DNA of 45,108 nt from a virus. Its lineage: Duplodnaviria > Caudoviricetes. The position numbers were made by a program, and so were the translations under genes. Within the stretch, counting starts at the first letter, position 1. Each line of letters starts with the position of its first letter. The notes below the pieces were generated by a model. The model was not told where the DNA came from. It did no database searches and saw only the letters and a list, made by a program, of their open reading frames with translations. Of the stretch, positions 120-45,108 are shown one piece after another. The stretch is taken from positions 1-45,108 of IMG/VR virus record IMGVR_UViG_3300012942_000014; one strand, given 5' to 3'.

Positions 120-149
120 AATTGTTAATGTACTTTCTGTACTATATCT

Positions 150-187: not shown

Positions 188-526
188 TTATTTTTGCCTC
201 ACAATAAGATTTATAACGCCTAGATTACACTCTTGTATATCATCTACAGCTATATCCATCCGTGGTACAGTAGGGTCAAACTTAGCCAATGCTCTTACGA
301 AGGTCTTACCATACTTGTCTTGGTATTCCCTCATAACCTGCTCAGCATACTTCTGACCGCCTCCAGACCAGATATAGCAACGTATATTCTTGAACCTTGA
401 TAAGGTATGTGCTAGGTTGCAGACATCCTCATTCCAGACGATTCTAGAAGTATCACGATGAGCATACTTTCTTTTACTGCTCCTTAGCGTCCCATCTATA
501 TCGAATGCTACATTTATCTTGTCCAT
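188..526 (-). CDS. HAD-superfamily phosphatase, directly downstream of the tRNA array
   Basis: FDIDGTL motif I, WSGGG motif II, VDD motif IV; start at MDKIN after AAGGA RBS (the ORF-track upstream extension overlaps tRNA-Phe). Confidence 0.75.
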   Translation of the reverse strand: MDKINVAFDIDGTLRSSKRKYAHRDTSRIVWNEDVCNLAHTLSRFKNIRCYIWSGGGQKYAEQVMREYQDKYGKTFVRALAKFDPTVPRMDIAVDDIQECNLGVINLIVRQK

Positions 527-540
527 ATAATCCTTTCCTT

Positions 541-617
541 TGGTGTCCTCGGTAAGTTTCGAACTCACGACCTCCTGGGCTTCAACCAGGCGCTCTCACC
601 ATCTGAGCTACAAGGAC
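541..617 (-). tRNA. trnF: tRNA-Phe(GAA)
   Basis: Cloverleaf, anticodon arm CCTGG-TTGAAGC-CCAGG, encoded CCA. Confidence 0.95.
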
Positions 618-621
618 TAAT

Positions 622-711
622 TGGTGGTAGGACTGGGATTCGAACCCAGGGTGGCTTGCACCACTCTTGTTTTCAAGACAAGTGCACTCGGCCAGACTAT
701 GCGACCCTACC
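622..711 (-). tRNA. trnS: tRNA-Ser(TGA)
   Basis: CTTGT-CTTGAAA-ACAAG, long variable arm, CCA. Confidence 0.95.
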
Positions 712-714
712 TTA

Positions 715-789
715 TGGTTCCGGTGCTAGGACTCAAACCTAGATAACAAGGCTCAGAACCTTGCGTCCTATCAATTAGACGACTCCGGA
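715..789 (-). tRNA. trnQ: tRNA-Gln(CTG)
   Basis: CAAGG-TTCTGAG-CCTTG; T-loop TTTGAGT; CCA. Confidence 0.9.
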
Positions 790-793
790 TTAT

Positions 794-869
794 TGGTTCT
801 CAGGGAACGGTTCGAACGTTCGACATTCAGGTTCAAAGCCTGACGACTCTACCACTGGTCTACCTGAGA
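794..869 (-). tRNA. trnQ: tRNA-Gln(TTG)
   Basis: TCAGG-CTTTGAA-CCTGA; CCA. Confidence 0.92.
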
Positions 870-896
870 TTATTTTGTACGCCAGTGAAGCTGGCT

Positions 897-982
897 TGGA
901 GGAGGGCTACGGTACCGACCCGTATGGAGTGACCCACGTACACCTTAGCACGATGTCCTCAGACCTTCTGAGTTAACCCTCC
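897..982 (-). tRNA. trnS: tRNA-Ser(GCT), atypical T-loop
   Basis: ACATC-GTGCTAA-GGTGT, long variable region, T-arm TACGG-GTCGGTA-CCGTA, TCCA end. Confidence 0.8.
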
Positions 983-1188
983 AGGCTCTTTATACCTAGG
1001 AGTTCAAAGACTCTTCTGTGGTAGTCTCCCTTTCTCTTTGTTTCTCCAGTGTCTCTGTAGGTAAGGAGCACTGGAACTCCTGCTATGTCACATTTCCTGG
1101 TGAACTTTCCATCTACTATAGAACTAGATTTAATCCCGTAGATGGTACCAGCCATACCAAGTCCTCTGATGAGTACAATCTCCCACAT
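973..1188 (-). CDS. Hypothetical protein inserted in tRNA array
   Basis: 71-aa ORF with AGGGAGG RBS filling the gap between tRNA-Trp and tRNA-Ser. Confidence 0.55.
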   Translation of the reverse strand: MWEIVLIRGLGMAGTIYGIKSSSIVDGKFTRKCDIAGVPVLLTYRDTGETKRKGDYHRRVFELLGIKSLEG

Positions 1189-1257
1189 TTAACTGCAACC
1201 TCCCTTCTTATACAATATGCTTCCTTTCTAACCTAGACAGCTAGTCAGGCTAAGTCT

Positions 1258-1329
1258 TGGCAGACCTGGTAGGTAACGCTCCCACAGCTAGAGGGTTTGG
1301 AATCCTCCGCAGCACTTTGCCTCAAGTCC
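1258..1329 (-). tRNA. trnW: tRNA-Trp(CCA), short D-arm and atypical T-loop
   Basis: GAGGA-TTCCAAA-CCCTC; T-arm GTGGG-AGCGTTA-CCTAC; GCCA end. Confidence 0.8.
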
Positions 1330-1333
1330 GTAT

Positions 1334-1431
1334 TGGTGAATCCGTTGGGAGTCTAACCCAAACTCCATACCTCTTTTCACAAGCACAACCAGGTTACTTT
1401 GACTGTATGGAACTGCACAGTTATCGGACTC
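1334..1431 (-). ncRNA. 98-nt tRNA-like / mini-tmRNA (TLD-only)-like RNA
   Basis: Acceptor GAGTCCG/CGGATTC with G3.U70, ACCA end, T-arm TTGGG-TTAGACT-CCCAA, 8-bp stem TTCCATAC/GTATGGAG enclosing a 34-nt loop instead of a 7-nt anticodon loop. Confidence 0.7.
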
Positions 1432-1434
1432 ATA

Positions 1435-1509
1435 TGGTGGGTTCTGAAGGAATCGAACCTTCATGGATTGGTTAAGAGCCAACTATTCTAGCCGTTGAAC
1501 TAAGAACCC
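1435..1509 (-). tRNA. trnK: tRNA-Lys(CTT)
   Basis: GTTGG-CTCTTAA-CCAAT; CCA. Confidence 0.93.
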
Positions 1510-1737
1510 GTGATTACATTTGCCCACTGCTCTCGTAGTAAGGGCACAGTTGGTACAGTATATTCTTACATAGTTGCCGTACTTTACTGGTATGAAGAGG
1601 TCTAGCATCTCATCACAGCAGAAGCATCTAGGTCTACCATACTCGTTCTTATATTCGGCTATGAAGTTACGATTGAGTAACCCTGGCTTTACTATAACAC
1701 GTGCTGGTAGACTAGAACTATGTCTTATTATACTCAT
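1483..1737 (-). CDS. Small Zn-ribbon protein within tRNA array
   Basis: CFCC...CTNC motifs; AAGGA RBS just after the tRNA-Ala CCA; 3' end overlaps tRNA-Lys. Confidence 0.55.
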   Translation of the reverse strand: MSIIRHSSSLPARVIVKPGLLNRNFIAEYKNEYGRPRCFCCDEMLDLFIPVKYGNYVRIYCTNCALTTRAVGKCNHGFLVQRLE

Positions 1738-1747
1738 ACTTTCCTTT

Positions 1748-1822
1748 TGGTGGAGTAACAGTGAATCGAACACTGATGAATACCTTGCAAAGGTATCATA
1801 ATAACCGTTATATGATTACCCC
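1748..1822 (-). tRNA. trnA: tRNA-Ala(TGC)
   Basis: ATACC-TTTGCAA-GGTAT; G3.U70; CCA. Confidence 0.93.
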
Positions 1823-1827
1823 AATAT

Positions 1828-1903
1828 TGGTGACCGCGCCAGGCATTGAACCCGGTTCTCTACCTTGAGAGGGTAGTGTCCTAACCGTATAGACGATGCA
1901 GCC
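1828..1903 (-). tRNA. trnE: tRNA-Glu(CTC)
   Basis: CTACC-CTCTCAA-GGTAG; CCA. Confidence 0.92.
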
Positions 1904-1908
1904 ATGCT

Positions 1909-1982
1909 TGGTGCACACTGAGTGAGTCGAACACTCGACATCTGATTGGAAGTCAGATATTTTACCGCTAAACTAAGCGTGC
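1909..1982 (-). tRNA. trnG: tRNA-Gly(TCC)
   Basis: TCTGA-CTTCCAA-TCAGA; CCA. Confidence 0.93.
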
Positions 1983-1988
1983 ATGATT

Positions 1989-2064
1989 TGGTGCTACCCT
2001 TCGGATTCGAACCGAAACCTGAGGGCTTAGAACACCCTTGTACTATCCGTTATACTAAGGTAGC
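1989..2064 (-). tRNA. trnR: tRNA-Arg(TCT)
   Basis: AGGGT-GTTCTAA-GCCCT; CCA. Confidence 0.9.
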
Positions 2065-2068
2065 GTAT

Positions 2069-2146
2069 TGGTGGCCCCAGTAAGATTCGAACTTACACTT
2101 TACAGGGTTTAGGTCTGTTGCCTCTGCCTAATTGGGCTATAGGGCC
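2069..2146 (-). tRNA. trnL: tRNA-Leu(TAA), short variable arm, C33
   Basis: ACAGA-CCTAAAC-CCTGT; Leu-type D-loop GGCAGAGGC; CCA. Confidence 0.8.
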
Positions 2147-2220
2147 TGGAACCCCGAGAGGGAATCGAACCCTCGAAAGCAGTTTTGCGGGCTGCCGGGT
2201 AGCCATTCCCCATTCGAGGT
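2147..2220 (-). tRNA. trnC: tRNA-Cys(GCA), C33
   Basis: GCAGC-CCGCAAA-ACTGC; U73 discriminator; CCA. Confidence 0.85.
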
Positions 2221-2230
2221 ATATTATCTT

Positions 2231-2317
2231 TGGTACCGTTTGAGGGAATCGCACCCACTCGACCCAGGGGGACTTGTTTTACAGACAAGCGTGCCTTCTT
2301 TAACACATTAAAACGGC
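2231..2317 (-). tRNA. trnY: tRNA-Tyr(GTA)
   Basis: CTTGT-CTGTAAA-ACAAG; long variable region; atypical T-arm; CCA. Confidence 0.85.
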
Positions 2318-2319
2318 TC

Positions 2320-2396
2320 TGGTGCCTCCCGAGAGATTCGAACTCTCACTGACGTGGTTCTAAGCCACGGTCCTCTGCCAGTTGGGATAGAGAGGC
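2320..2396 (-). tRNA. trnL: tRNA-Leu(TAG), short variable arm
   Basis: CGTGG-CTTAGAA-CCACG; CCA. Confidence 0.9.
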
Positions 2397-2403
2397 ATAT
2401 TCT

Positions 2404-2480
2404 TGGTCAGAGTAGCAGGACTCGAACCTGCGTTCTCTATGTTCCAAACATAGCGGATTAACCAGCTTTCCTATACTCTG
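2404..2480 (-). tRNA. trnP: tRNA-Pro(TGG)
   Basis: CTATG-TTTGGAA-CATAG; C1-G72; CCA. Confidence 0.93.
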
Positions 2481-2482
2481 AT

Positions 2483-2557
2483 TGGTCCCCACGAGACGGC
2501 TCAAACGTCTGATACAGAGTCAACAGCTCTGCGTGTTATCAACTACACTACACGGGG
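2483..2557 (-). tRNA. trnN: tRNA-Asn(GTT), G37
   Basis: CAGAG-CTGTTGA-CTCTG; T-loop TTTGAGC; CCA. Confidence 0.85.
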
Positions 2558-2563
2558 TTGTTT

Positions 2564-2639
2564 TGGGGTGCCCAACTGGTATTGCGCCAGTGTCTCCTCC
2601 TTCACAGGGAGGCGTGGTGACTTCTCCACTATAGACACC
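2564..2639 (-). tRNA. trnH: tRNA-His(GTG)
   Basis: G-1:C73; CCTCC-CTGTGAA-GGAGG; T-loop CGCAATA. Confidence 0.88.
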
Positions 2640-2642
2640 ATA

Positions 2643-2717
2643 TGGTCCCGACAACCAGAATTGAACTGGTGACTTAAGCCTGACAAGCTAATGTTATAAC
2701 CACTTAACTATGCCGGG
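2643..2717 (-). tRNA. trnD: tRNA-Asp(GTC)
   Basis: TTAGC-TTGTCAG-GCTTA; CCA; A73. Confidence 0.85.
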
Positions 2718-2721
2718 TTAC

Positions 2722-2797
2722 TGGTGCTCACAGTCGGATTCAAACCGACGTTCCCATGGCTGAAAACCAAGTATCCTAATCACTAGATGATGTGAGC
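2722..2797 (-). tRNA. trnE: tRNA-Glu(TTC)
   Basis: CTTGG-TTTTCAG-CCATG; T-loop TTTGAAT; CCA. Confidence 0.88.
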
Positions 2798-2800
2798 GTT

Positions 2801-2874
2801 TGGAGCTGGATTAGGGTGCCGCCCCCTAGTCGGTAGTTTACAAAACTACTGCTCTACTGTTGAGCTAAACCAGC
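2801..2874 (-). tRNA. trnT: tRNA-Thr(TGT), atypical T-loop
   Basis: GTAGT-TTTGTAA-ACTAC; T-arm TAGGG-GGCGGCA-CCCTA; TCCA. Confidence 0.85.
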
Positions 2875-2883
2875 GAATATATT

Positions 2884-2958
2884 TGGTGTCTCGATAAGGA
2901 TTTGAACCTTAACTAATAGTTTCGAAGACTAGTGTGCTATCCATTACACTATCAAGAC
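2884..2958 (-). tRNA. trnR: tRNA-Arg(TCG)
   Basis: CTAGT-CTTCGAA-ACTAT; CCA. Confidence 0.9.
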
Positions 2959-2961
2959 TTA

Positions 2962-3037
2962 TGGTAGCACCTAAAGGATTCGAACCTTTGACCGCCTCTG
3001 TGTAAAAGAGGAACTCTAGCCACTGAGTTAAGGTGCT
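2962..3037 (-). tRNA. trnV: tRNA-Val(TAC)
   Basis: CCTCT-TTTACAC-AGAGG; CCA. Confidence 0.93.
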
Positions 3038-3040
3038 TCA

Positions 3041-3115
3041 TGGTAAGGGATAAAGGAGTTGAACCTTTGTTGGCACTGTATAAGAATGCTGTCCTAACCG
3101 TTGGACGAATCCCTA
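3041..3115 (-). tRNA. trnI: tRNA with TAT anticodon (Ile-UAU), U1xU72 mismatch
   Basis: GCATT-CTTATAC-AGTGC; acceptor TAGGGAT/ATCCCTT; CCA. Confidence 0.85.
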
Positions 3116-3119
3116 TTAT

Positions 3120-3193
3120 TGGTCGGCTACCAAGGTAATGCTCCTCGGCCTTCTGTGTATCGGACAGATGCTCTACTTTTAAGCTAGTAGCCG
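3120..3193 (-). tRNA. trnI: tRNA-Ile(GAT), C33, atypical T-loop
   Basis: TCTGT-CCGATAC-ACAGA; T-arm CGAGG-AGCATTA-CCTTG; CCA. Confidence 0.82.
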
Positions 3194-3196
3194 TTA

Positions 3197-3272
3197 TGGT
3201 GCACCCTGTAGGAGTTGAACCTACTCTGTACTGCTTAAAAGGCAGTTGCCTTGACCGTTCGGCATAGGATGC
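3197..3272 (-). tRNA. trnK: tRNA-Lys(TTT)
   Basis: ACTGC-CTTTTAA-GCAGT; CCA. Confidence 0.9.
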
Positions 3273-3278
3273 TAAACT

Positions 3279-3353
3279 TGGTTGCTCCCCCCAGAGTTGC
3301 ACTGGGTCCTGAACCTTATGAGGGTTCCGAGATTACTGATTCTCCAGGGAGCA
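3279..3353 (-). tRNA. trnM: tRNA-Met(CAT)
   Basis: GAACC-CTCATAA-GGTTC; T-loop TGCAACT; CCA; lacks the initiator GGG/CCC anticodon stem. Confidence 0.85.
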
Positions 3354-7527: not shown

Positions 7528-8460
7528 TTATTTAATTTCTGAACTAATATCAATGACCTCAGAAGAGTAGTACTTCCACTCGCCACCGCTCCAGTTGTAG
7601 ATATCTAAACCTTCAACTGTCCAGCCCATACCTTTTAAGATATACGCATAGAACGACAGCTGTAGCCAGTACGCTCCTAGAGTCGTATCAGCAATCTTAC
7701 CCTTGAATGGGGCTTTGATTGTTTCTTTCTTTTCAATATCAGGGTTCGTCTTGTAATCCTGTACACGGCAGATTTTATTCTTCTCGTCTACAATCAGCAA
7801 TCGGTCAATGAACCCACAGAGCTTATGCTCCTTATCTGCTACGAATAACTCATAACGAGCTTTTTCCTTATCTCGCCCTGCGAAGAACTTCTGCACAATT
7901 GGCTTAAGAATTTCATTCTTATGTAACGCAGACTCTGGTGTACCCTTAGTTGCAACAGATAACTCTAGGTACTTACCATAAAGCTCTAATGCATTGTGAA
8001 TCGCTGTCCCAAGTGAGGTACTGGCCTCGCCGTTAAGCTTCCACATAGATTTTACATCATAAGGGTTTACACCATACTTAGCTGCAAACTTGTCACCAAT
8101 AGAATCAGCATCGAATTTAGTCTTGTACTTGCTACAGAAAGCGCTACCGCTAAGGTATTCTGCACCCTCTTCATCAAAGTATTTATGCGCGTCCTCATCA
8201 AATAATAATTCGACACCGTTGTACACTGAGACCACTCTATCATAACTATTAGTCTGTGTTGTATCGAATTTTACTGGCTGAGATACGTTTAATTCCTTGC
8301 CTGGTTCACAGACACGGTTCCAAATTCGTTGCGTTTTATCTAAGGCGTCTTGTTCAGCTTCTTCGTAAGTACTACCAACACCTTCTACCTCAGGCTGCAT
8401 ATTAGCATACTGGCCGGTAGGAATCGTTGAGGTAATCTTGAGTCTTACTAATTCACTCAT
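7528..8460 (-). CDS. PD-(D/E)XK nuclease (Cas4/RecB-like exonuclease)
   Basis: GTAIHNALE, CGFIDRL, QDYKTN, YWLQLSFY. Confidence 0.85.
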   Translation of the reverse strand: MSELVRLKITSTIPTGQYANMQPEVEGVGSTYEEAEQDALDKTQRIWNRVCEPGKELNVSQPVKFDTTQTNSYDRVVSVYNGVELLFDEDAHKYFDEEGAEYLSGSAFCSKYKTKFDADSIGDKFAAKYGVNPYDVKSMWKLNGEASTSLGTAIHNALELYGKYLELSVATKGTPESALHKNEILKPIVQKFFAGRDKEKARYELFVADKEHKLCGFIDRLLIVDEKNKICRVQDYKTNPDIEKKETIKAPFKGKIADTTLGAYWLQLSFYAYILKGMGWTVEGLDIYNWSGGEWKYYSSEVIDISSEIK

Positions 8461-9155: not shown

Positions 9156-9248
9156 TCATCCCTTACCCCAGATAATTGTTACTACACCCAGGATTCCAAT
9201 TACTATCCAGAATGTAATCTGTACTGCTCTATCGGTTTTCTTTTCCAT
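9156..9248 (-). CDS. 30-aa single-TM peptide
   Basis: MEKKTDRAVQITFWIVIGILGVVTIIWGKG with AGGAGG RBS. Confidence 0.5.
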   Translation of the reverse strand: MEKKTDRAVQITFWIVIGILGVVTIIWGKG

Positions 9249-9624
9249 AGTCTACCTCCTTGATGTCTTCTATCTTATCTTTGTTAGCATGAATGAATAA
9301 TCTTCGTCTGTTATCTACATGATTCATAAATCTATCGTACTCTGCTGCGCTGCGTATATAGTATTTCCCGATATACTGTATCCACGGCGAAAACGGTATC
9401 GGGAAGGCTCCCTCAACCCACTTAGGATATTCATTCATGACCACTCCTTCCTTACTTGCTCTTAGCACTTTATTCACTGTGCCGGAGAGGAGCTGTTCGA
9501 TATCAAATTGCAAGTCATCGTAAAACTTACCGGTTGGGTATATTTCAAACTCGCCTGGATTATCTAACATCTCGCTAGTATGCTTGACGATTATCTCTCG
9601 TAGCTCTTGCCTTGTGTTAGTCAT
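9229..9624 (-). CDS. Hypothetical protein
   Basis: 131-aa ORF with RBS. Confidence 0.6.
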   Translation of the reverse strand: MTNTRQELREIIVKHTSEMLDNPGEFEIYPTGKFYDDLQFDIEQLLSGTVNKVLRASKEGVVMNEYPKWVEGAFPIPFSPWIQYIGKYYIRSAAEYDRFMNHVDNRRRLFIHANKDKIEDIKEVDYGKENR

Positions 9625-18221: not shown

Positions 18222-18305
18222 GAATGAAGGTAGAGGCGAGAAGTCTCTATTTTATTTAGAAAGGAATAATGCTATACTATGAGTAGTAGTAAAACAAAGG
18301 AAAAC

Positions 18306-19094
18306 ATGGAACCAAAGATAGTTATCTGGGATACTGAGGTATCTCCAGCAATAGTTGCAGGATATGGGAATAAGTGGGATTTCCGGTATGTAAAAGAAAT
18401 TGAACCGCAGAAGCTCATGTGCTATGCTTATAAGTACCTGGGTGAAGAAAGCGTCAAGTTTGTTTCTATGCACGACTTTGAGACACAGGCTGAGCTAGTT
18501 CAGTCATTAGCAGACCTGCTGGATGAGGCTGATATTACGGTCGCACACAATGGGATAAATTTTGATGACAAAATGGCAAACACTTTCTTCATCTCAAACG
18601 GCATTGATAGACCGTCACCGAGAAAGTCTGTTGACACACTTCGGGTCGCAAGAAGAAAATTCAGATTTCCTTCGAATAGCCTTAATGACCTTGGAGAGTA
18701 TCTTGGCCTTGGAGGAAAAGCAGAGACAACTTATGGAAGTATATGGGAAGATTTTATCAGTGGAGATGAAGAGGCGTCAAGACTTATGGAAGTCTACAAC
18801 GCAAGAGATGTGGAACTCCTAGAGAAGATATATGAGAAATTCCTGCCATATATAGATAATCATCCAAATATGGGACAATACCTACAGAAGCAGAATGTCT
18901 GTCCTACTTGTGGAAAAGAAGATACATTACAGAAGCGTGGCGTTGTTCAAAGGATAAATGGTCCAGTCCAGCAATACTGGTGCAACACCGGAAAGGGCGG
19001 TTGTGGAGCATGGCCTAAGGAGCGCTACGTAGCAAAAGAAGATAGAATCCCTATGGGAGAGAGGAGCAATATAGTTCATGGACAAGGTGTTTAA
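18306..19094 (+). CDS. RNase H-like (DnaQ/DEDD) 3'-5' exonuclease with Zn ribbon
   Basis: WDTE, AHNGINFD, YNARDV, CPTCG...C....CG; AAGGA RBS. Confidence 0.85.
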   Translation: MEPKIVIWDTEVSPAIVAGYGNKWDFRYVKEIEPQKLMCYAYKYLGEESVKFVSMHDFETQAELVQSLADLLDEADITVAHNGINFDDKMANTFFISNGIDRPSPRKSVDTLRVARRKFRFPSNSLNDLGEYLGLGGKAETTYGSIWEDFISGDEEASRLMEVYNARDVELLEKIYEKFLPYIDNHPNMGQYLQKQNVCPTCGKEDTLQKRGVVQRINGPVQQYWCNTGKGGCGAWPKERYVAKEDRIPMGERSNIVHGQGV

Positions 19095-42986: not shown

Positions 42987-43020
42987 CAGACCCACAAATA
43001 AAGGTTAGAATAGATTAGAT

Positions 43021-43905
43021 ATGGCATATACTTACGAGACACAGTACGACAGTCCTAACTACACAGCTCAGGCGAGTTCACCAGCAGTGTTCGGATATAA
43101 CCGGACTATTGAGGGTATTACAATTCACTGGTGGGGAGGCCCTAATACAAACCCTTCGTATGAGGGCGTGAGAAGCTTCCTGTGCCGTTCTGGAGGCAAT
43201 ACTAGTGCTCACTACGTTGCAACTGGTACAAATCGAAGAGTGTCTTGTATTGTAGCTCCTATGGACGTAGCCTGGCACTCAGGCTCAGCCTATGGTAATG
43301 CTAAGACTATTGGTATTGAGTGTGACCCAAGAGCTAGAGACGAGGACTATGATGTAGTCTCTGAGCTGATTGCAGACATCAGAAGTGCTTATGGTGATGT
43401 GCCTCTTTACTCACACAATATGTGGATTTCAACAACTTGCCCAGGAGTATACGATATTAACAGATTAGACCAGATGAGTTATACAAAAGTTTCACACGAT
43501 AAATGGGGAGATGTTACAGACAAGTCAGCTCCTACCCCAACTCCAGCGCCATCTCAGCCAGCTCCAACTGCTCCTGTAGAGACACTTCTTTATAAGGTGG
43601 TAAAGGCTGGTAAGCAGCTTGGTGCCTTCGCTAAGGATATCAATGCCTGGAACCTCTTCACTAATGAGGGAGCGGATAAGATTACTGCTAACGGTGCAGA
43701 TGTCACTGAATCATTAAGAGCCAAGTTCACTACTCCATCACCTACCACAAAAGACCCAGATGGAAGCACTCAGGCAGATTCTGGTAAGCCAGTTGCCGAG
43801 AAGGACGACTACACTGAAGTAGTAAAAGATAACAACAATCTTCTAAAGACTATACTATCTATGCTACAATCATTAGTAGACGCATTTAAGAAAATATTTA
43901 AGTAG
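43021..43905 (+). CDS. Endolysin, N-acetylmuramoyl-L-alanine amidase (Amidase_2)
   Basis: ITIHWWG, SAHYV, AWHSG, IGIEC, HN...TTCPG; promoter TTGACA-17-TAGAAT at 42983-43011. Confidence 0.9.
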   Translation: MAYTYETQYDSPNYTAQASSPAVFGYNRTIEGITIHWWGGPNTNPSYEGVRSFLCRSGGNTSAHYVATGTNRRVSCIVAPMDVAWHSGSAYGNAKTIGIECDPRARDEDYDVVSELIADIRSAYGDVPLYSHNMWISTTCPGVYDINRLDQMSYTKVSHDKWGDVTDKSAPTPTPAPSQPAPTAPVETLLYKVVKAGKQLGAFAKDINAWNLFTNEGADKITANGADVTESLRAKFTTPSPTTKDPDGSTQADSGKPVAEKDDYTEVVKDNNNLLKTILSMLQSLVDAFKKIFK

Positions 43906-43915
43906 GAAAAACACT

Positions 43916-44104
43916 ATGCAAGTAACTATCCCATCAAAAGTAAGAGCTGGAATCTATGTCGCTACTGTTCTTGTAACAGCAGTCATTGTTCCCATGTATG
44001 CAGCTCATGTTGTGTCTGACCTAGTATTCGCTATCTGGACCAGTGTATCTGGTGCCGTAGCAGGACTAGCTGGACTTAACGTAACACCAGACAAGGAGGT
44101 GTAA
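43916..44104 (+). CDS. Holin
   Basis: Two TM helices, VRAGIY...LAGLNV, after endolysin. Confidence 0.75.
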   Translation: MQVTIPSKVRAGIYVATVLVTAVIVPMYAAHVVSDLVFAIWTSVSGAVAGLAGLNVTPDKEV

Positions 44105-44247
44105 TGAACTTACTATTCGGACTAATTGCAGGAGTACTAGGATACTGTGTATCACTGCTAGTATTTAATAACGTCATCTCTGTCCTTATCGGACTACTGA
44201 TTGGTCTAGTTGTGGCCTTTGGCTCAGATAGATTCGTTAGAAGATAA
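44104..44247 (+). CDS. 47-aa two-TM protein (second holin/antiholin-like)
   Basis: MNLLFGLIAGVLGYCVSLLV...; AAGGAGG RBS, TAATG coupling. Confidence 0.6.
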   Translation: MNLLFGLIAGVLGYCVSLLVFNNVISVLIGLLIGLVVAFGSDRFVRR

Positions 44248-44257
44248 AAGAAATAAG

Positions 44258-44358
44258 ATAAAAAGAAAGAGCACCCGAGAGGGTGCTTCTTTCGTAAGAG
44301 TTGCTCCGATTGGAGCTTGAACGGTGTTGGGGGAGGTACTAGTCACGCTAGTGACTGT
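44258..44358 (-). ncRNA. Candidate ~100-nt sRNA with CCUCCCCC single-stranded segment
   Basis: Perfect promoter TTGACA-17-TATAAT (44365-44393), two hairpins, terminator, no ORF. Confidence 0.65.
44260..44293. terminator. Bidirectional intrinsic terminator
   Basis: GAAAGAGCACCC-GAGA-GGGTGCTTCTTTC flanked by A/T runs. Confidence 0.8.
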
Positions 44359-44404
44359 ACTTGCATTATACCACATCAGTATAACTTTGTCAATAGGCTA
44401 TGCC

Positions 44405-44610
44405 TTGAATTATAGATAACAGCCGATGGGGTTATATCAGCTCTTCAATACCAGTCTCACCATAAGCTTTCCGCAATGTCTTTAGCAGTATAGGACTTAC
44501 GGTTCGCAGTAAAACTGCACCCGGCTTACCTTATCTGTATCAACCGCCTAGTCCACTTACTCCTCTGGACATTATCACCCGCTACTCTCGTAGTATTATC
44601 TATAAATCAA
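44405..44610 (-). ncRNA. ~206-nt structured RNA
   Basis: 17-bp terminal stem (one mismatch, U.G on minus), CTAC-GAGA-GTAG tetraloop, further hairpins. Confidence 0.55.
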
Positions 44611-44768
44611 GTCCCCCGAGCTGGTAATGCTAAGAAGCGGAGGGTAGATACTTCATAACGCTCAGGGGTTTGAATAGGGGGGGTATAAGGTACTATCTCC
44701 ACTAACAATGTAATGAAGATAGTATACCTCACCAACCTGAAAGGACAAGAGATTGATGAAGTATACTA

Positions 44769-45108
44769 TTAACCAACTAAGATATACCCAGCAGGGTGAG
44801 ATTCCACCCCGACCGCCTTTGGGAGAGAGGCTACTTTCCAGGCTTCCCCAGAGTTCGCTTCATCCATCCAGCAAGTCAGCAATGGCTTTGCACTCACCAT
44901 CAACGTCCCCTCCGCACTGAGTATGATTTGATTCATATGCCAAATAAAATTATATTAAGCAGGGACGCAACCGCTCCACGTCCTTTCGGACCCTACAACC
45001 AGCTTTTGATTATTATGCCGACCATAGTACACCTTTCGATGCGTGTCACAGGGATTAGCCGTGCGTAGCAACTTATTATCCTACTGCCGGGCAAACCTTA
45101 GTTGGTTA
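44769..45108 (-). ncRNA. ~340-nt structured RNA, GOLLD-like (spans the repeated terminus, 1-120)
   Basis: 13-bp terminal stem TTAACCAACTAAG/CTTAGTTGGTTAA, inner GCCCGGCAG/CTGCTGGGT stem, GAAA tetraloops, own promoter, adjacent to tRNA operon. Confidence 0.55.

Follow-up and report, generated by a model that had tools for sequence, protein, structure and literature searches.

Candidate ornate RNAs beside phage tRNA genes

The GOLLD, ROOL and similar phage RNAs known so far are 550–830 nt long. In PMC12286853, GOLLD and ROOL are described as often close to tRNA islands, kissing loops are prominent in the cages that they form, and bulged-G motifs are listed for OLE, ROOL and GOLLD; its supplement 1 reports variable stems carrying fixed A-run loops as an A-minor bridge pattern in OLE and GOLLD. 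Several mid-sized ornate RNAs form RNA-only oligomers according to 10.64898/2026.07.01.735769 and PMC12990946, and the first of these also describes RNAs of <200 nt as capable of higher-order assemblies.

The window analysed here is the whole 45,108 nt stretch of virus record IMGVR_UViG_3300012942_000014. Next to its tRNA genes it carries a ∼340 nt element, which we consider a rare, uncatalogued family of ornate phage non-coding RNA belonging to a known general kind, the tRNA-linked structured RNAs of phages. At 340 nt, and with covariation, a promoter-like site of its own and an anti-Shine-Dalgarno (anti-SD)-like tail, the family lends itself to transcription, probing and imaging. Through it one could ask directly if tRNA-linked phage RNAs generally self-assemble into cages and if they influence translation.

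The phage and its tRNA cluster

The window is a complete 45 kb tailed phage record, classed as carrying direct terminal repeats, and positions 1–119 duplicate 44990–45108, a 119 nt overlap of the contig ends. PHROG matches on the plus strand (21729–43905) include terminase, portal, capsid, tail and lysis genes, while those on the minus strand are early-type genes. The minus arm ends, in order, with a tRNA cluster, a gene for a 112 aa product, a promoter-like site and ∼900 nt without a credible gene, and the two arms meet at a terminator-like hairpin (44287–44270).

The tRNA cluster (541–3353, minus strand) contains 22 genes called by ARAGORN and 22 called by Rfam, with a union of 25. The 45 kb record thus carries no fewer than 25 tRNA genes, including the rare calls Ile(TAT) and Arg(TCG), whereas the three closest phage records (G001–G003) have only one each. 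Three tRNA-sized gaps in the cluster (888–985, 1258–1333 and 1335–1428, minus strand) were called by neither program and are probably atypical tRNAs; 888–985 and 1258–1333 fold in a cloverleaf-like manner, the latter with a CCA anticodon-like loop. The 112 aa gene (188–526, minus strand) lies between the last tRNA gene and the promoter and includes a DxDGT motif. Its product has no PHROG or Pfam match, and no full-length relative was found in viral contigs. An earlier note, made from the sequence alone, had placed the RNA downstream of the tRNA operon; the cluster is indeed upstream, but this gene intervenes.

For the terminase, 120 relatives are listed at 55–100% identity, many on contigs of 41–46 kb, and the capsid protein is 78% identical in G001–G003. 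Terminase relatives also occur in Saccharibacteria-labelled and other Patescibacteria genomes (29–41% identity), but better matches (52% and 44%) are found in other phyla, and a search of 201 genomes from the class of G050 returned nothing for the lysin at E≤1e-20. The evidence on the host is divided, part of it pointing to Patescibacteria and part failing to do so.

Extent, promoter and strand of the element

Because the contig ends overlap by 119 nt, the 13 bp stem formed by 108–120 with 44769–44781, which had been claimed in the earlier note and is exact, closes a single contiguous element. Re-circularisation, proposed there as a check, joins 44769–45108 and position 120 on the minus strand into one stretch of ∼340 nt, and in sequencing run X1, possibly the source of the record, the region 43000–45108 is spanned within one contig.

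The minus-strand promoter that had been proposed at 150–178 is present as a predicted sigma-70-type site (178 to 150), with the −35 sequence TTGACA, a 17 nt spacer and an extended −10 sequence TG-n-TACACT, matching the consensus at 10 of 12 positions. Shuffled sequences yield 1.7 such sites per 600 nt, making this a good site that is not rare on its own. The predicted start is near 143, giving a short predicted 5′ leader (121–143, minus strand) in which a 10 nt block (125–134) recurs in the otherwise unlike flank of the homolog described below, identical in run X3 and with one change in X4. The minus strand of the element folds to −127.8 kcal/mol and the plus strand only to −93.2 kcal/mol, a difference of 35 kcal/mol. 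Both the promoter and this asymmetry of folding point to the minus strand. No terminator was found in 1–600.

The region had been described as free of open reading frames, but a 90 aa plus-strand frame (44796–45068) overlaps the element. It has no PHROG or Pfam match, and the changes in the homolog show no codon pattern, falling at codon positions 1, 2 and 3 in 13, 10 and 10 cases respectively (hand count, n = 33).

Predicted fold

The minimum free energy (MFE) fold of 44769–45108 has a z-score of −4.46, with none of 100 shuffled sequences as stable. The best of 28 control windows, each 340 nt long, scored −2.92. With the closing stems removed, the core has a z-score of only −0.86. The energy therefore supports mainly the closing helix, and the case for the interior rests on covariation.

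All parts of the fold are on the minus strand. The 5′ strands of the closing stems P1 and P2 occupy 45084–45108, with position 120 as the first base of P1, and are duplicated at 95–119 by the assembly overlap; the 3′ strands are at 44769–44794. Inside them is an irregular hairpin, P3 (45052–45081), with outer pair probabilities of 0.75–0.88 and uncertain inner pairs. Domain I (44971–45051) is a four-way junction, predicted by the MFE fold and supported by covariation. It carries a first GAAA hairpin (45042–45029), an 11 bp hairpin with an invariant 13 nt A-rich loop (45016–45004) and a second GAAA hairpin (44991–44980). P2 and the two GAAA hairpins, all noticed previously, appear in the MFE fold with pair probabilities of 0.89–1.0. 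Domain II (44903–44968) is a junction with three short hairpins, of which an AU-rich one varies. Domain III (44795–44898) is a long irregular stem with a terminal hairpin (44852–44837), and holds the GOLLD-like landmarks discussed below. Beneath the terminal hairpin, the MFE fold places GAA (44856–44854) opposite AGUA (44835–44832) in an internal loop, which we take to be a bulged-G motif. A scan of the element found no complementarity of ≥5 pairs between MFE loops, unlike the kissing loops of GOLLD and ROOL cages, and no long-range pseudoknot helices were found in it.

Homologs and covariation

Four sequencing runs (X1–X4) are listed for the element, with X3 and X4 representing one wastewater sample and one contig. 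This contig aligns to 44813–45095 with 42 substitutions and 6 gaps, and is ∼85% identical over 283 nt. The adjacent 44706–44812, which includes the 3′ strands of P2 and P1, has the same length but is diverged, and 44678–44705 is identical. Past both ends the contig is unlike the window, with a loose end at 45095 and similarity ceasing before 44678. As the similarity stops at the 5′ edge of the element and before 44678, the RNA has been kept while its flanks have not. A second homolog fragment in run X1 covers 44789–44847 with 8 changes in 59 nt, and near-identical short pieces of the element are present in X2, X3 and X4. X3 and X4 are labelled RNA-Seq but are flagged as probably DNA, and their contigs cannot show strand or ends, nor are gaps in their coverage evidence of absence.

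Covariation was tallied by hand, comparing 33 listed X3 changes with the MFE pair table (9 of the 42 substitutions are unlisted), and thus involves two sequences, the window and one near-full homolog, together with the 59 nt fragment. Eighteen of the listed changes are in Domain I, and 17 of these keep pairing while none breaks a pair. Twelve make up six compensatory pairs (45043/44979, 45041/45030, 45040/45031, 45039/45032, 45038/45033 and 44990/44981), four of them consecutive and directly under the first GAAA loop, and five are one-sided changes that preserve pairing (45025, 44997, 44996, 44994 and 44988). The partner of the remaining change, 44973, is at a gap, and this change would also be compensatory if the gap and a nearby insertion are taken as ungapped. 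There are no changes in the 21 bases of the two GAAA loops and the A-rich loop, and hence these loops are invariant on stems that vary. The absence of covarying homologs, which would have counted against the earlier proposal, was thus not observed, at least for Domain I in this two-sequence hand tally.

The 15 listed changes outside Domain I include 6 in the gapped AU-rich hairpin, 3 at unpaired positions, 3 with partners in the diverged stretch and 1 that is ambiguous. The partners of the other two, 44852 and 44848, lie where changes are unlisted, and these two would break MFE pairs if the partners are unchanged. No listed change falls in 44891–44927, and 44853–44868 is unchanged. The pair-preserving changes are strong evidence, from two sequences, that selection acts on the fold of the minus-strand RNA, and the element is very probably a real structured RNA.

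Distribution

BLASTN against phages and plasmids gave no match at E≤1. Four DNA pattern searches of viral contigs returned 0, 2, 15 and 7 stretches, the 2 being tRNA-Tyr and the others not alignable to the element, and a search of metagenome contigs returned 6, one from the window's own record (L076) and 5 unrelated. The pattern search of genome contigs returned none, using a pattern that includes a possibly covarying position and may be too strict, as may one of the viral contig searches. BLAST with the element found matches of only 14–30 nt in 5 of 50 related records and none in 401 genomes of the class of G050. A model, R1, for which the window and its own copy served as input, found nothing in 55 related records or 150 genomes of the phylum, and only itself among 8 sources. 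The element is missing from all 5 of the closest phage records and, by model R1, from the 55 related records, and hence ranks as an accessory gene. The literature covered, which mostly excludes subscription papers, contained no description of it. Two motifs of the element were not found in the part of the PMC10690425 supplements searched, and its catalogue may still hold the family.

Comparison with GOLLD and ROOL

The element was previously suggested to be either an unusually small version of GOLLD or a new class, and the latter fits best. Rfam cmscan in E-value mode, applied to 44250–45108 and to 44775–44975, gave no match at E≤10 to the 416-position GOLLD model (RF02032) or the 574-position ROOL model (RF03087). 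The only matches were five weak, unrelated ones on 44250–45108, which touched at most the last 6 bases of the element; 44775–44975 gave none. In the same mode, a diverged Ligilactobacillus ROOL (L287, 464–1006), taken from the alignment in PMC12286853, was found in a stretch of the same length with 130.4 bits and an E-value of 1.6e-28. Rfam gathering mode missed this ROOL although 130 bits is above its cut-off. A scan of the whole window in gathering mode is therefore a weak negative, and for large ornate RNAs the lack of a match in that mode is unreliable. GOLLD was also sought as a control, but four sets of genomes or records (5, 150, 66 and 4) yielded none, and a pattern search of 400 yielded none either. 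The exclusion of ROOL is thus backed by a positive control and that of GOLLD is not, E-value mode having been validated by ROOL alone. The element is probably a member of neither family.

Like GOLLD (RF02032; PMC12286853 and PMC12990946), the element is phage-encoded, ornate and beside a tRNA cluster, here with one 112 aa gene between them. Its GNRA loops, its predicted bulged-G loop and the A-run loop that it carries on a variable stem are also shared. However, GOLLD RNAs are 700–833 nt and their conserved 3′ domain alone is 375–416 nt, and the full 3′ architecture (P13/14–P27 in ∼375–416 nt, plus a variable 5′ domain) is not present in an element of 340 nt in all. The element also differs in being closed end-to-end by a long helix, in being followed by an anti-SD-like tail and in having no middle part of the 3′ domain. 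ROOL (RF03087) is likewise a phage RNA found near tRNAs with a long terminal closing helix, and its consensus shows an AGUAG/GAAA internal loop like that predicted here, but its model has 574 positions and, apart from the missing model match, the long-range pseudoknot helices are not found in the element.

The resemblance noticed in the 3′ part was followed up by eye and post hoc with two printed GOLLD sequences, env-38 (PMC12286853) and env-46 (PMC12776560). Five landmarks of the GOLLD terminal region are colinear and similarly spaced at 44884–44800. A pattern made from these landmarks matches the element and has no match in 2.95 Mb of other loci or in 20,000 shuffled sequences, but was chosen after the match had been seen and was loosened at two positions; a check by hand showed that env-38 itself falls outside it by one base in the second gap. 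Seven letters of the GOLLD L14 region also occur at 45009. However, only 5 of 11 GOLLD motifs sought are present, the order of two is reversed, and the middle landmarks of the 3′ domain are missing. The look-alike of the GAAA hairpin precedes the L14-like loop instead of following it and is rewritten in the homolog, in which two of the five landmarks (44884/44881 and 44848) are also altered. A GOLLD-like topology lies 13.6 kcal/mol above the MFE fold and destroys the predicted bulged-G loop, and it is this loop that may be the source of the perceived GOLLD familiarity of the 3′ part.

The downstream hairpin and C-rich tail

The conserved unit continues for ∼90 nt beyond 44769, to about 44678, and 44665–44772 folds with a z-score of −5.22. 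Directly after the closing stem is a 17 bp hairpin (44722–44766, minus strand) with an 11 nt loop that includes UCCUUUC (44745–44739), followed by a second hairpin and an unpaired C-rich tail (44670–44721, minus strand), in which 44678–44705 is identical in the homolog and the spacing from the element is unchanged. UCCUUUC has the same letters as the 3′ tail of the 16S rRNA of genome G046, but not that of G050, whose 16S rRNA lacks an anti-SD tail. In G001–G003, which do not have the element, the tail is retained behind tRNA-Trp, and the anti-SD-like loop letters are fixed while the stem differs. The minus (early) strand has 10 copies of GAAAGGA and the plus strand 2, and among the genes that it precedes are those at 188–526, 9229–9624 and 18279–19094. 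Searched with a model of the tail, a set of 56 records gave nothing but those used in training, and 150 genomes from the class of G046 gave one match. This match, in G165 (L261, 1420–1593), is a similar host-genome hairpin with a promoter-like site of its own, located right after gyrB and with a changed loop. A 7-letter motif, CCUAUUC (44670–44676, minus strand), follows the C-rich run and recurs in the flank of the homolog and in L032, L034, L037, L038 and L039.

In its 16S-tail-like loop and C-rich tail, 44670–44766 is like the RsaE/RoxS-type small RNAs, which have C-rich or anti-SD loops. The likeness is confined to this segment, which has no Rfam match and is fused here behind an ornate domain.

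Possible functions

Our preferred interpretation, held tentatively and with rather less than even confidence, is that the element specifies an uncatalogued ∼340 nt RNA, likely transcribed from its own promoter, that forms a compact protein-free particle with docking loops and serves as an abundant scaffold or decoy during infection. With no terminator found before the tail, a transcript starting near 143 would run through the tail, and, none being found in 1–600, read-through from the tRNA operon may also occur. An RNase III-type cut in the ∼25 bp closing helix could release the core, which would then adopt a compact particle-like fold unaided by protein. Its GAAA and A-rich loops may dock onto helices, either within one copy or between adjacent copies, as in the bridge pattern of GOLLD and OLE, and may lead to oligomers. 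The abundant product would act as a scaffold or decoy, like the role proposed for GOLLD and ROOL. Counting against this are the low z-score of the core, the small basis of two sequences for the covariation, the lack of complementary loops in the scan when kissing loops are prominent in GOLLD and ROOL, and the absence of the element from the closest phage records. A more elaborate form, which we regard as distinctly improbable, is a modular transcript whose ornate part self-assembles without protein and displays many loops mimicking the 16S tail, capturing ribosome-binding sites and redirecting translation.

Several other explanations were weighed against this one. That there is no functional RNA here, but a DNA-level element, a plus-strand small protein gene or a chance fold, is very unlikely. 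None of the runs holding the element is on record as RNA, the 90 aa frame overlaps it and the region is where two transcription arms converge, but the compensatory changes, and those that keep a G-U pair, make sense solely in an RNA of the minus strand, and a coding role is at odds with the lack of third-position bias (10 of 33) and the 6 gap positions in the homolog. A structured RNA could instead be a remote and much reduced relative of GOLLD, in which the terminal module (approximately P23–P27) and an L14-like A-rich loop are kept and the rest is replaced. The ordered landmarks, their pattern being absent from the other loci and the shuffled sequences, the L14 letters and the adjoining tRNA cluster agree with this, but it is unlikely given that RF02032 finds no match at E≤10, that the loosened pattern is post hoc, that 6 of 11 motifs are absent, that the GAAA hairpin is on the wrong side of the L14-like loop and rewritten, that landmarks at 44884/44881 and 44848 are altered in the homolog, and that the fold costs 13.6 kcal/mol and the bulged-G loop. 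A further, improbable reading is that the element is a minimal core from which the GOLLD terminal module derives. There is also a small but real chance that the working part is the anti-SD-like hairpin and C-rich tail, a trans-acting small RNA masking ribosome-binding sites, for which the 340 nt domain would be a stabilizing or localizing 5′ carrier. The tail is the constant part, following the element at unchanged spacing in the homolog and tRNA-Trp in G001–G003; its loop letters survive changes in the stem and match the 16S tail of G046, GAAAGGA is biased 10 to 2 towards the minus strand and stands ahead of three genes, and one of 150 genomes of that class has a comparable hairpin behind a promoter of its own. 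Yet this leaves the conservation of 283 nt of junctions and loops unexplained, the tail exists where the element does not, the G050 16S rRNA has no anti-SD tail and the G165 match has a changed loop.

The remaining explanations bring in proteins or catalysis. The long invariant blocks amid freely covarying stems, namely the 13 nt A-rich loop, 44891–44927 and 44853–44868, would also suit the RNA half of a ribonucleoprotein in which these single-stranded blocks capture a single, specific protein of host or phage, for instance to titrate a defence nuclease or an RNA-binding regulator. HEARO is disordered without its protein (10.1101/2024.12.08.627333), and by this parallel the modest stability of the core would fit a protein-stabilized fold. 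However, no candidate partner gene is linked and the upstream 112 aa gene has neither a family match nor a full-length relative in viral contigs, and we give this explanation a small but real chance. HEARO (343 nt), along with ARRPOF (255 nt), raiA, EGFOA and manA, resembles the element in size class and multi-junction fold, but the element has no Rfam match to such mid-sized ornate RNAs at E≤10 and a different genomic context; HEARO has an adjacent nuclease gene and the element has none. A catalytic RNA serving the tRNA cluster, whether a ribozyme, an intron remnant or a diverged RNase P-like tRNA-processing RNA, is very unlikely. Its size, nested closing stems, multi-way junctions and place after 25 or more tRNA genes would be appropriate, CPR bacteria have diverged RNase P RNAs below model cut-offs (PMC8172020), and the 5′ end of the element has 8 letters in common with group IIC intron 5′ ends. 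But the Rfam models for ribozymes, introns, RNase P, SRP, tmRNA and 6S RNA all failed to match at E≤10. RNase P RNA was rejected as a 9-letter P4 motif is absent from the region even with one mismatch. A group II intron was rejected as no D1–D4 or D5 model matched and a profile of 16 intron 5′ domains gave no match at E≤100.

Other folded RNAs in the region and in related phages

Further folded stretches are present between the tail and the meeting point of the two arms. A second ORF-free stretch (44404–44669, minus strand) consists of a GC-rich stem and a ∼208 nt domain closed by a 16 bp stem (44611–44596 with 44419–44404, 15 of 16 paired), with a z-score of −2.98 for 44395–44770. It has no Rfam match and is not shared with the X3/X4 homolog. 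Beyond it, in 44262–44393 (minus strand), a promoter matching 12 of 12 consensus positions (44393–44365) precedes a candidate small RNA of ∼95 nt with a z-score of −7.7, which includes an unpaired C-rich, anti-SD-like stretch and ends at the terminator-like hairpin at 44287–44270. A matching promoter is also found in L032 and L034, together with a shared 9-letter motif in the same place.

G001–G003 carry a different ORF-free RNA of ∼240 nt upstream of tRNA-Trp (L032 1134–1376 and L034 1134–1376, plus strand). Compensatory changes are seen between the L032 and L034 copies and there is no Rfam match in L032; homology of the element to this RNA is not supported. In L037, from a phage with a related lysin, two ORF-free folded RNAs, ∼165 and ∼140 nt in size and both with a long closing stem, are located upstream of two tRNAs (∼8050–8365, minus strand), and have no Rfam match in gathering mode, a weak test. 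The occurrence of other uncatalogued folded RNAs in the same slot of related phages points to a region of exchangeable RNA cassettes, which would belong to a large family of uncultured 42–46 kb phages. Within the window, an 18 nt GAGA-loop hairpin motif is found twice on the minus strand, upstream of tRNA-Lys (1523–1540) and in the second folded stretch (44578–44595), and the two copies are identical at 16 of 18 positions.
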